Origin: Holosporales bacterium
Lineage (GTDB): Bacteria > Pseudomonadota > Alphaproteobacteria > RUG11792
DNA: 64,000 nucleotides
Direction: 5' to 3'
Assembly: GCA_031268935.1 (NCBI GenBank)
Contig: JAIRWL010000010.1
Location: 5,288-69,287 of the forward strand
This document shows, in pieces, positions 11,042-55,391 of the stretch. A program made the position numbers and the translations under genes. Below the pieces are notes generated by a model, which was not told where the DNA came from, made no database searches, and saw only the letters and a list, made by a program, of their open reading frames with translations. Positions within the stretch are counted from its first letter, which is position 1. Every line of letters starts with the position of its first letter.

Positions 11042-12629
11042 TCAGCCTCCTCTAGAACCTTCCGCCGACGGCAGGAGGACCAGTTCCCTCACCTTTTCCG
11101 CCATTCTCTTTGTCCACTCACATCCTCCGCGTATCCTCTTGTAGTCTATAGGCAGAAGGAAGGGCATCCCTTGAGCACGGAGCCCCACCTGCCATTCCCA
11201 GCCGTGGACTAGGTCGAGGATCCCTTGGATGTACGCAAACCACTGCCGGTATTCGCTAAGGATGTCGGAGATCTCTTGCGGCTCCTTCCCCCTCACCACC
11301 CTGCCGTCGTCGTATAAGAACCGATAAACTTGTAACTCTAGGAGCATGGCACGCTGAAGATGAAGCTCGACTGTTCTTGCTACTTCTCTAACACCTTCCT
11401 CTCTGACTAACCGCTCCCACGCCTCATTGCCTTCAGGTGTTACTAAGGCCCCCAAATTAGTGATAACCCGGTTCGCATTTGTCAGCAGATAATCTGTAGT
11501 TACCTCGTTGCTCTCCCATCTCTCCCGTTGCCGTCTTAATTCCTCTTCCTCCATCTCAGCCTGAGGACAGGTGATTGAGGGGAGGTAGCCTAAACGTCGG
11601 GCCAAGACCTCTACCACGCGGACCACCCTGCCCAACCTCTCGCTCACCCTCTTCACCCCCTCGATCTTTACCTCCTTCCCTGGGCTGGCCGTGGCTCCAA
11701 TCATCGTATCGTATAAGCTCTTCATGCTCTCCAGGCATCCCCTAACCAGGGTCCGACTTTTCTCTCCAGTCTGCCCTCCTAACGTGCCCTGTCCCCCCGT
11801 CCAGGTTCCCTCCTCCCTCGCTTTTTCCTCCAGGGCCCAACCTATGTCTACAAAGTCCAGGATATTCTGAAGCTCGGCACCTACGATTTGTTTTTGGGCT
11901 CTTTGGACTAGCTGAGCCTGGAGGGGGGGGGGTGCTGCCGCGAAATACTGGAATGCTTAACCTCTGCGTCTCGCAGGAAGCCTGGAAGGTGGGATAGCTG
12001 CTCGTCAACATCGCGCGAAGGACTGCCCAGACGCTCCCCTCGCCTGTCGCGAGCCTGCTGGCGATTTCTTGCGCCATCCCCACAAAGTCGGGTACCGGCT
12101 CTGCATTCCTAGAATAGAGATCCCATTCGATGGCTCCCTGCAGGAACTTACTTTGGATACAACTTACATGTCCCACTGTCCCTCTTACTTTCCAGCCAGC
12201 AGCCTGCCCTCGGGCGAGAAAGGTATCTGGCCCTCGCTCCGCCACGGGAATCATTTCCAGCTTAGCGGTGAGGGGATCTATGCTGATTTCTAAAATGCGC
12301 AAGGGTCTGTCGACCAAATACACAAAATTCTCGTAAGTGCTATTGAGGAGTTCCTCCTCGGTCGGATGCAACCCCCCGGAAGACTCCAACTCGGCAATTT
12401 TGTGCAGAATGTCGGCCACCCCCCAGGTCCCTTCCTCCCCATGGGTGATCTTCTGACGAACCCCCGACCTAACCGATGCAATACGGGGTATACCAGCATC
12501 TCGCGCCTCCACCCTAGCTTGGCCATCCGGTCGTGGTTCACCTGCCCTATGTGCACTCGCCCCTAGAGCCTAGGTATAGCTTAAAAGCATTAAGCTCAGT
12601 CCAAAACTTTGCAAAACGCATTTATTCAT
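11042..12629 (-). pseudogene. Family A paralog disrupted by an in-frame TAG in the signal peptide and a frameshift at a C10 tract
   Basis: The ATG at 12629 gives MNKCVLQSFGLSLMLLSYT-stop(TAG, 12572-12570)-ALGAS, against MNKYVLNSFGLSLMLLSYTKDLGAS in the intact paralog. Removing one base from the G10/C10 run at 11923-11932 joins ORF 11742-12512 without stops to ORF 11042-11725 (LQAQLVQRAQKQIVGAELQNILDFVDIGWALEEKAREEGTWTGG...MKSLYDTM). Confidence 0.7.
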
Positions 12630-12666
12630 CCTCTGACCCTTTCTCTGTTATGTATTATTACTATAT

Positions 12667-12696
12667 ATTATACTAAGAATCCTCCCCAATTGTCCA
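12667..12696 (-). promoter_or_regulatory. Putative sigma70-type promoter (TGGACA-N18-TATAAT), conserved with 14681-14710
   Basis: Coding-strand TGGACA (12696-12691) and TATAAT (12672-12667), 38 nt upstream of the ATG at 12629. The upstream paralog has the same geometry. Confidence 0.5.
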
Positions 12697-12945
12697 TCCC
12701 TCTTGAATTCCTTTAAGTAATCTCCTCGGTAAATAGCTCTGAACAATTAGAGATGAAGTTCCAGTTGTTCCTCAGACTACCTCCCGATGGCTTCTCCTGA
12801 CAAAACCCCAAAATTGGCCCCAGCTAGTTCGTTGCGGGGCGCTCAGCAACGCCGTTTGGAGAATTCGATTCTCCTTGTTGACCTGCTCTGCCCCCCGTGT
12901 AAGGAAGAAGGCGTCCATGCCCGCTCCCGGAGAAACGGGAACTTT

Positions 12946-53533: not shown

Positions 53534-54715
53534 ATGGGGGGATTGAGATTTAAGTCAGTTATTTTGGCTTCGCTTATTACCTTGTCACCACTCTCTGTTT
53601 CCGTTGCCAAAAAATCAACTCAAACAGACCACAAAAAACTTGATCAGGATCCGATTGATCCTGAAAAACTTAGGGCTCTGACCAAGAAGCATATCGGAGC
53701 CGTTGTTCCCATATATATAACCCGAAATGGCGTGGATAAAGAAGACGGTAGAATTTTTAATCTAGCTGTTGTCCCGAAAAATGAGAGAAAACGACATAAT
53801 AATTTCGTGAAATCTGGAATTATCGTGTCGCCGCAGGGGCATATCCTCACGACGGCCGATGGTATCGAGCGAGGGGATCATATACTCGTTAACATAGGGG
53901 AAGGGGGCGTCGATGTTAGAGAGAAGGGGCAAAATACCTATGAGGCTGTAGTTATCGAAGTCTCGCCAGAATTAGGATTGGCTCTTTTGAAAATCGATCC
54001 CAGAGGAGGTGTAGCATTGCCGTTTATACCGATTGGAAATGCGCCTTCCTTGGTTGCCGGCCAACCGATCTCAGGGGTTGCTATGGGCCATGCCAAGGGT
54101 GATGTTTTCGTAGGGGTAGCATGTCAGGCGAATAAAAACAGTACCTTTGGGCCCTTCGCGATGCCCGCCGAAACGACCCCAATAAAGAAAGATGGTGCAT
54201 GGCAATTGCACATAGTGCAAACGGTAGGCAAGGGAGGATGGTTCGAGCTACATGGCGGGGTCCTAATTGATAGGAACGGGAGGGTGATTGGTCTGATCGT
54301 TGCGGGGGTGGATCAGTTTTACCTACCTGTGTTAACAGCCATCCCCGTGAGTATTGTCGCCAAGGTCCTGCGTACTGCGGTCCCTTCGCTCCTGAAAACT
54401 GCAGACACTGTGCATTTGGGGATAACCCCGTGTTTGAAGCCGGCCAAAACAATTGGAAAAGCCGGGCTAGAGGCCCTCGAATGGGATGTCGTGAATTATC
54501 CATCCTTGGTGGTCATCAAGTCTATTCAAGTTGGTTCTCCGGCCGATAACGCTGGCTTACTCCCTGGAGATGTCATCCTAAGAATAGGAGATGAAGAAGT
54601 TAAGAATCTCGCTACTTTCAAAAATCTAGTGAACGATACAATAGGGACCAATGCAGTCGTTTTCAAGGTCCTGAGAGACGGAAAAATAACAGAATTCGAA
54701 TTGAGTCTGGTATAA
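53534..54715 (+). CDS. HtrA/DegP-like trypsin-fold + PDZ protein, with the catalytic triad apparently substituted
   Basis: Signal peptide (FKSVILASLITLSPLSVSVA), trypsin-fold blocks alignable by eye to DegP, and a PDZ domain (GSPADNAGLLPGDVILRIGDEEV). The triad positions read D (LTTADG where DegP has LTNNHV), G (LGLALLKI where DegP has DIALLKI) and H (ELHGGVL where DegP has GNSGGAL). Confidence 0.65.
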   Translation: MGGLRFKSVILASLITLSPLSVSVAKKSTQTDHKKLDQDPIDPEKLRALTKKHIGAVVPIYITRNGVDKEDGRIFNLAVVPKNERKRHNNFVKSGIIVSPQGHILTTADGIERGDHILVNIGEGGVDVREKGQNTYEAVVIEVSPELGLALLKIDPRGGVALPFIPIGNAPSLVAGQPISGVAMGHAKGDVFVGVACQANKNSTFGPFAMPAETTPIKKDGAWQLHIVQTVGKGGWFELHGGVLIDRNGRVIGLIVAGVDQFYLPVLTAIPVSIVAKVLRTAVPSLLKTADTVHLGITPCLKPAKTIGKAGLEALEWDVVNYPSLVVIKSIQVGSPADNAGLLPGDVILRIGDEEVKNLATFKNLVNDTIGTNAVVFKVLRDGKITEFELSLV

Positions 54716-54895
54716 TTTCTCCTGTCCAAAACCGATTCTCTCAATTCCTGGCAACATCCATGTAATGTCTATTGTCTATAATGAACCGATATCGTAAATC
54801 CCGAATATAATCAAATATATTGACAGTACCTCTCAATCGTCATAAAATAAAAGAAAGGGACGCTTAATCCAAAGGGCATTAGACAGGAGAAGGTC

Positions 54896-55195
54896 ATGAA
54901 AATAAACAACCTAGCGCTAGCGGGAATAATGTTCCAGCTACTGAGTTATAGCAATATGCAGTCACATGCATCAACTCTCGACCCTTATATCCTGCAAAGG
55001 TATATATTGAACCATCCAGAGGAGTTTGGGCAGCTTCGTCCATACGAGGCCTTGGATAAGGCAAGTGACATGCTTCGAAATGCCGAGGTAACGGCAGCCT
55101 TGAGGCAAAAGATCCAGAACGATACCCCCCGCCCCAGGCCAAAAGATGCATTTCCGGAAGATCTTAACGATCCCACCCTTTACGAGTACGATTAG
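54896..55195 (+). CDS. Small secreted hypothetical protein (99 aa)
   Basis: N-terminus MKINNLALAGIMFQLLSYSNMQSHA (signal peptide-like), with an agacaggagaag RBS-like element upstream. Confidence 0.4.
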   Translation: MKINNLALAGIMFQLLSYSNMQSHASTLDPYILQRYILNHPEEFGQLRPYEALDKASDMLRNAEVTAALRQKIQNDTPRPRPKDAFPEDLNDPTLYEYD

Positions 55196-55391
55196 AGTCT
55201 CAGGAGCGCCGGGTCGGGGACAACCATCTCAGCCAGGAAAGATAGCGGTTGGGATTTGAGCGATAAGCCCCCCCCCCCCTTAAGGGATCCTTATCGACCC
55301 GGCAAGGGGGCTGCCCTCGGTGCCCTGATGGGCAGGCGGGATATGATGGGCGGGGAAGCCCGTCTGAGGGTGGAATCCCTCGAGTCCCTAG

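Follow-up and report, generated by a model that had tools for sequence, protein, structure and literature searches.

Why are genes for secreted proteins in an alphaproteobacterial genome broken at runs of G or C? The question was raised by 64,000 nucleotides (nt) of the 98,775-bp contig JAIRWL010000010.1 from an uncultured Holosporales bacterium, hereafter called the window, which belong to a metagenome-assembled genome (MAG; NCBI proteins MDR1475877-88, locus tags LBI20_). An initial annotation, made from the sequence alone, had placed G/C homopolymers exactly at the breaks of three island open reading frames (ORFs). These three putative genes, here called T1, T2 and T3, lie on the minus strand. 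Our analysis indicates that two of them, and probably the third, are lineage-specific secreted-protein genes which are frameshifted at long G/C runs, and the breaks almost certainly arise through slippage at G/C homopolymers. The window as a whole alternates between two kinds of sequence, a backbone of approximately 41 % GC (36 kb in total) and islands of approximately 53 % GC, locally 50-60 % (28 kb in total).

The four tracts that had been named C10, C9, G7 and C12 are all present in the window, the first three names referring to the coding, minus strand. On the plus strand they are read as G10 at 11923-11932, the frameshift site of T1, as G9 at 19459-19467, the frameshift site of T2, and as C7 at 38793-38799, at the T3 junction, which is either a frameshift site or an ORF overlap. 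C12 (55268-55279, plus strand) lies in non-coding, GC-rich DNA and is associated with no gene. As claimed, each of the three island ORFs breaks at its run: the overlap of two stop-free frames on the minus strand covers the tract in T1 (11745-12569 passing into 11045-11956), in T2 (19452-20012 into 18949-19551) and in T3 (38793-39221 into 37831-38880). The proposed corrections were also right, namely -1 for T1, +1 or -2 for T2 and +1 or -2 for T3, and they result in single ORFs of 528 codons, counted from its ATG, for T1, of 327 for T2 and of 410 for T3.

ORF structure alone resolved the position of the breaks only to windows of 88-212 nt. The codon-usage log-likelihood profile switches frame at each of the three tracts. 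The chance that seven randomly placed island G/C runs of at least 7 nt would cover all three overlap windows is about 1e-5, and the association between runs and breaks is therefore real. The broken share of coding runs climbs with run length, from none seen among runs of 6 nt to 1/3 at 7 nt, 1/1 at 9 nt and 1/1 at 10 nt.

T1 (11042..12629, minus strand, 528 codons once restored) is a secreted-protein gene with an intact tandem paralog of 565 amino acids (aa; 12946..14643, minus strand, signal peptide MNKYVLNSFGLSLMLLSYT). Residues 2-498 of the restored T1 align to residues 22-556 of the paralog (E 1e-39, 24 % identity), and this full-length alignment requires a frame change at the tract, which leaves T1 disrupted relative to an intact homolog. 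When the paralog was compared with the raw DNA by tblastn, the match ran in frame 2 down to 11955 and in frame 0 from 11902, bracketing the C10 run and narrowing the break to 11902-11955. At the site aligned to the C run the paralog reads ACC TCA CCG CTC, and T1 with C9 instead of C10 would read ACC CCC CCC CTC (T-P-P-L). The lesion in the C10 run is a frameshift of +1. A second lesion, not at a homopolymer, is found in the signal peptide, where codon 20 is TAG (12570-12572) in T1 and AAG in the paralog, the 5′ module around this codon being otherwise 79 % identical. The module, which comprises promoter, Shine-Dalgarno site and signal peptide, is conserved between 12547-12788 of T1 and 14561-14788 of the paralog.

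The alignment thus identifies T1 as one gene, and the nonsense codon and the frameshift together mark it as a dead one, a pseudogene with two lesions. Because the TAG at codon 20 is in frame, no tract length can turn T1 on. Read-through of this codon was considered and rejected: TAG, TAA and TGA each end conserved backbone genes in the window, and the genetic code is therefore standard. A word-index homolog search with the restored T1 gave no match. The AlphaFold2 model of the intact paralog is all-helical, at low confidence (pLDDT 44.5).

T2 (18946..19928, minus strand, 327 aa once restored) is likewise a secreted-protein gene, and the C9 frameshift is its sole visible lesion. It too has a tandem paralog, at 17463..18776 on the minus strand. 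The 5′ module of T2, again promoter, Shine-Dalgarno site and signal peptide (19799-19980), shares 86 % identity with that of the neighbour (18647-18828), and the stretch of its last codons and 3′ flank (18833-18978) matches 17350-17495 at 82 % identity. The stops and C-termini of the two genes align (PAPSRPRGGK and stop versus PAPSIRRRHK and stop), and their central parts are unrelated. The shared 3′ module includes an identical stretch of approximately 35 nt downstream of the stop. Since both the 5′ and the 3′ end are common to the neighbour, T2 is one broken gene, its frame being disrupted with respect to a homolog that matches it at both ends. With C10 instead of C9 the tract would read F-P-P-P-F. 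The start, signal peptide and C-terminus of T2 are intact, and a change in tract length alone restores the frame.

The T2 paralog itself has lost its start codon. At the position of the T2 ATG, after the same GGAG Shine-Dalgarno site, it has ACG (18774-18776), and its next in-frame start falls within the signal peptide. This paralog also contains tandem repeats with a period of 222 nt (17667-18163). In both tandem paralog pairs, that of T1 and that of T2, the 5′ module is conserved, in the T2 pair the 3′ module as well, and the mature-protein region is unrelated or only 24 % identical, which suggests cassette-like diversification or gene conversion.

The third case is less clear. T3 (37828..39059, minus strand) is a putative single gene which, once restored, encodes 410 aa, with a signal peptide at the N-terminus and a membrane anchor at the C-terminus. 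Its junction has the sequence GGGGGGGTGATT, and with G8 would read V-G-G-V-I. The same junction can be read as GGG GGG TGA, where the ORF ending at the TGA and another beginning at a GTG share 4 nt. On the latter reading there would be no frameshift at T3 at all, but a gene for an 88-aa secreted peptide (39059-38790) translationally coupled, through the 4-nt overlap (GTGA), to a gene of 321 aa starting from the GTG at 38793. Overlaps of 4 nt are common in operons of the window (e.g. 21662/21665, 43574/43577 and 58742/58745), and no homolog spanning the junction was found. Against two genes, the signal peptide and AT-rich head that characterise island genes occur in the upstream piece only, and T3 conforms to the island pattern only when read as one gene; GC begins to rise upstream of the G run; and, as the run lies right against the GTG, no usable spacing is available for a Shine-Dalgarno site. 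Furthermore, the JGI gene call in this region (P0007, 293 aa) corresponds to residues 29-321 of the 321-aa ORF, its start lying 28 codons past the GTG, and therefore did not use the GTG. T3 is thus probably one gene, and the two-gene alternative is the less likely one. A change of tract length alone restores T3 only if it is one gene. Homologs did not help to decide the matter: a word-index search with the restored T3, and an exhaustive phmmer search of its downstream part against 1.84 billion representatives, each found only the window's own protein. A membrane helix spanning the junction was also considered and dropped, the stretch being below the transmembrane hydropathy threshold.

The fourth tract, C12, had been placed by the initial annotation in an ORF-poor island near tRNA-Val; the position and setting are as described, whereas a link to any gene is not supported, the tract lying in non-coding DNA. 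A 99-aa ORF with a signal peptide (54896-55195) ends 73 nt before the run, the tRNA gene is approximately 1.2 kb away, and neither a coding signal nor an Rfam match is found in the sequence around the run. A tandem repeat of 139-nt period (55392-55648), also non-coding, lies near the run, and another non-coding pair is found at 63.3-63.6 kb (63305-63574). Two ORF-poor, GC-rich stretches of approximately 1.1-1.2 kb each, 49300-50440 and 55200-56450, the second of which abuts tRNA-Val, showed no coding signal on either strand and no match in Rfam. The possibility that they contain decayed paralogs (49.3-50.4 and 55.2-56.4 kb) was rejected, as they have neither similarity to island proteins nor coding signal; complete decay of former genes is one possible explanation of them among others.

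Whether the tracts are more numerous than chance would give depends on the reference chosen. The islands form six blocks, roughly at 7.4-20, 24.1-28.3, 35.4-39.2, 49.3-51.3, 54.8-56.4 and 59.6-63.2 kb (more finely, 7400-20050, 24100-28300, 35400-39250, 49300-51350, 54800-56450 and 59600-63200). Pfam and NCBIfam searches gave a domain match for none of the island ORFs, nearly all of which have a Sec-type signal peptide at the N-terminus. In most island genes the segment coding for the signal peptide is AT-rich (34-43 % GC over approximately 90 nt) and gives way to a GC-rich body, and almost every island gene other than T3 starts behind a Shine-Dalgarno site of its own. Island proteins contain 8.4 % Pro and 8.9 % Gly, compared with 3.5 % and 6.7 % in the backbone, and are also rich in Ala and Gln; the share of CCC and GGG codons is nearly twice that of the backbone. 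Part of the GC excess of the islands is due to this amino acid composition, third codon positions not being its sole source.

The backbone encodes RNase PH, LeuRS, L9, Ugd, FtsZ, FtsA, TsaD, HolC, NusB, S9, L13, S1 and KdsA, as well as an M24 peptidase, the sheath proteins TssB and TssC of a type VI secretion system (T6SS) and two-component regulators. All backbone genes checked (roughly 27) gave full-length Pfam matches and none had an inactivating lesion. Each of the window proteins looked up by exact match was a singleton cluster.

Compared with 1.52 Mb of DNA from the ftsZ region of 80 other alphaproteobacteria, in which two G/C runs of at least 9 nt occur, the 64-kb window with its three such runs is approximately 36-fold enriched. 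Runs of at least 6 nt number 34 in the 28 kb of island and one in the 36 kb of backbone. When Markov models of order 1-5 were fitted to the island DNA itself, however, 0.8-1.6 runs of at least 9 nt were expected for the three observed (P 0.05-0.22), and 9-13 runs of at least 7 nt for the seven observed. In the backbone no run of at least 7 nt was found in 36 kb at 41 % GC, where a Bernoulli estimate gives approximately 0.9 by chance; the lack of tracts there is what its GC content predicts. The excess of long runs is therefore weaker than it looks, the counts fitting the islands' own composition. Two observations that had been put forward as signs of biology are weak: the restriction of the tracts to putative effector genes is accounted for by the base and amino acid composition of the islands, and corrections in both directions are expected under every hypothesis.

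The explanation we prefer, to which we give about an even chance of being correct, is an ongoing decay or turnover of a compositionally distinct repertoire of secreted proteins by slippage at G/C runs, rather than a regulated switch. Runs of CCC and GGG are abundant in the lineage-specific secreted-protein genes because these are rich in GC, Pro and Gly; the longest such runs (7-10 nt) would be the most mutable positions, at which replication slippage produces indels; and if the genes are dispensable or turn over quickly, frameshifts could persist beside other inactivating mutations. T2, and probably T3, may then represent recent inactivations by a single slippage event each. In the first island three of the six secreted-protein genes are inactivated, by three kinds of lesion (nonsense, start loss and frameshift), and in the window as a whole lesions occur in 4 of approximately 13 island ORFs if T3 is counted. 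The initial annotation had offered sequencing error, phase variation and transcriptional slippage as explanations, naming plain pseudogenes only as a refutation. With the TAG of T1 and the ACG of the T2 paralog, the pseudogene now comes first, phase variation being a possibility for T2 and T3. It is these two lesions, the TAG and the start loss, that lead us to prefer ordinary decay over a regulated switch, and we infer that the indels are present in the DNA, rather than only in the assembly, and are not kept as a switch.

Three points weigh against this preference. T2 and T3 have one lesion each, as opposed to the several independent lesions (nonsense and frameshift) of T1, and their frames of 327 and 410 codons are open apart from it; a reversible switch in its OFF state would account for them equally well. 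The in-frame tracts of the ancestor would also have been long (C9 in T1; C10 or C7 in T2; G8 or G5 in T3), and in functional genes such runs are avoided by most bacteria. Finally, assembly error at the runs of 9-10 nt stays a live, albeit unlikely, rival.

Slippage pseudogenes in host-restricted bacteria provide a parallel. As reported for Sodalis-allied symbionts (PMC4948707) and for decaying genes in Buchnera spacers (PMC3164680), and as here, indels occur at repeats under relaxed selection, and non-essential genes collect several types of lesion from which housekeeping genes are spared. The reported cases differ in being genome-wide deletions between longer repeats, whereas the lesions in the window are single-base indels at G/C homopolymers in one class of secreted-protein genes without known homologs.

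The decay of these genes at G/C runs has to be weighed against phase variation, in which T2 and T3 would be contingency loci whose secreted or surface proteins are toggled by slipped-strand mispairing, the assembly having caught the OFF state. We consider this unlikely, and equally unlikely its extension, in which T2, T3 and the surrounding islands would be a poly-G/C phasome of an intracellular Holosporales symbiont, varying the proteins shown to the eukaryotic host. A G/C run of at least 7 nt has been used as the cut-off for phase-variable loci, runs of at least 8 nt having been shown to switch in Campylobacter jejuni, and runs of 9-10 nt are modal in Campylobacter (PMC6321876). All three coding tracts, C10, C9 and G7, are runs of at least 7 nt inside coding sequence, and their lengths of 7-10 nt are within the range of such loci. 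T2 and T3 both encode proteins with signal peptides, neither has a second lesion, and the roughly 36-fold excess of long G/C runs over 1.5 Mb of other alphaproteobacterial DNA points in the same direction.

The resemblance extends to known poly-G/C contingency loci, such as the C. jejuni phasome, Neisseria lgt, Chlamydia trachomatis CT166 and Chlamydia pneumoniae pmp/Cpn1054, in which runs of 7-10 nt also lie within secreted or surface ORFs and a change of a single base is enough to toggle the frame (PMC6321876, PMC4514472, PMC2192423). Those in Chlamydia are examples of homopolymer switching in an obligate intracellular bacterium; in CT166, G9 corresponds to the ON and G10 to the OFF state, and heterogeneity is seen at the level of reads (PMC4514472). 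Unlike those loci, one of the three genes in the window, T1, has a second and irreversible lesion, the TAG, and cannot be turned on; in the same family as T2 decay is already seen, as its paralog has no start codon; and the number of tracts is not clearly above what local composition leads one to expect. The tracts of T1 and T2, moreover, lie mid-gene, at 40-47 % of the ORF, and not near the 5′ end.

Contingency loci are defined by length heterogeneity or strain variation, whereas here each tract has one assembled length, and no homologs or variants that would show conservation or a change of length were found in the collections searched. A search for contigs encoding three of the window proteins gave no match. 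In a scan of genome contigs for strain variants with FtsZ, among which the MAG itself was absent, the nearest full-length relative had 61 % FtsZ identity, 29 % GC and no G/C runs. Two metagenome scans gave no match either; the query was a protein in the one, and in the other the T2 flanks with a gap of variable length between them.

Sequencing or assembly errors at long G/C homopolymers, with the true genes in frame, are also an improbable explanation of the frameshifts, though one on a par with phase variation. The contig comes from a MAG, indel errors climb steeply with run length, the runs of 9-12 nt are longer than every other coding run in the window, and, as in draft assemblies with homopolymer errors, the longest homopolymers of the MAG are exactly where the apparent frameshifts lie. 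Unlike in such assemblies, the other 19 coding runs of 7-8 nt are in frame. These comprise 17 A/T runs in intact ORFs, including two A8 in LeuRS and T8 runs in Ugd and S1, and two C7 runs in the 1368-aa island ORF. A general homopolymer error in runs of up to 8 nt is thus disfavoured, the intact controls saying nothing on runs of at least 9 nt. Error at the T3 run is unlikely, its 7 nt placing it in a length class which is otherwise error-free, and in T1 the independent substitution makes a real frameshift the simpler reading.

Expression despite the frameshifts, by transcriptional slippage or by ribosomal frameshifting (+1 at CCC-C in T1, -1 at C CCC CCC in T2 or at G GGG GGG UGA in T3), is very improbable. 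CCC-C sites are prone to +1 shifts, the runs allow perfect re-pairing of tRNA-Pro or tRNA-Gly in the shifted frame, and a UGA lies directly after the T3 run and a stop two codons after that of T2; however, T1 is dead anyway through its TAG, no homologs were found that would show a conserved recoding site, and no stimulatory structure was found in the 80 nt downstream of the tracts, which fold no better than shuffled sequence (z -0.4 to +1.3). In Buchnera and Blochmannia slippage rescue, too, frameshifts occur at homopolymers in genes of intracellular symbionts, but those tracts are poly(A/T) of approximately 10 nt in conserved, essential genes, whereas here G/C tracts occur in non-conserved genes without homologs, not long A/T runs in otherwise intact ones. 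In the transcriptomes of E. coli and Buchnera, A/T runs accounted for 100 % of within-run insertions, and restoration of a reading frame was not seen; the earlier suggestion of transcriptional slippage is thus disfavoured, the tracts being G/C and G/C runs being reported as not prone to slippage (PMC5574713).

Other features of the window touch on the islands. Tandem repeats occur inside large island ORFs, with a period of 294 nt in the 1368-aa ORF and of approximately 489 nt in a 1170-aa ORF (27065-27911 and 59732-60725). Two paralogous 78-aa helix-turn-helix genes on the plus strand (approximately 7139-7372 and 39385-39618), with a weak Pfam match to HTH_58 and DNA that is 77 % identical over 320 nt, each have a GC-rich island beside them; the first is just 3′ of a 1046-aa ORF and the second is divergent from T3. 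The Rfam search identified two tRNAs only, tRNA-Ser(GGA) at 14886-14976 (plus strand), which lies within the first island and has a secreted-protein gene on either side, and tRNA-Val(GAC) at the border of another island. The T6SS sheath genes TssB/VipA and TssC/VipB (51492-53528, plus strand) are located between two GC-rich islands, and a link of the island proteins to T6SS export is not obvious because those proteins have Sec signal peptides. A type II toxin-antitoxin pair of the Phd/YefM-YoeB type (22080-22642, plus strand) is found in a low-GC stretch (approximately 34 %) beside the ftsZ region.

Homopolymer slippage itself is well known, whichever reading holds. For the annotation of the MAG, T1 and T2 should each be called as one frameshifted gene and not as separate ORFs. 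If T2 and T3 were contingency loci, this would be a strategy not described for Holosporales, acting on fast-evolving genes without known homologs which keep their 5′ and 3′ modules. Tract lengths that vary in the population would extend homopolymer phase variation to a protist-associated alphaproteobacterial symbiont, and would mark secreted proteins under fluctuating selection at the host interface. If the tracts are fixed, they would instead be the record of a continuing turnover of secreted proteins, in which the G/C runs are the first to fail.

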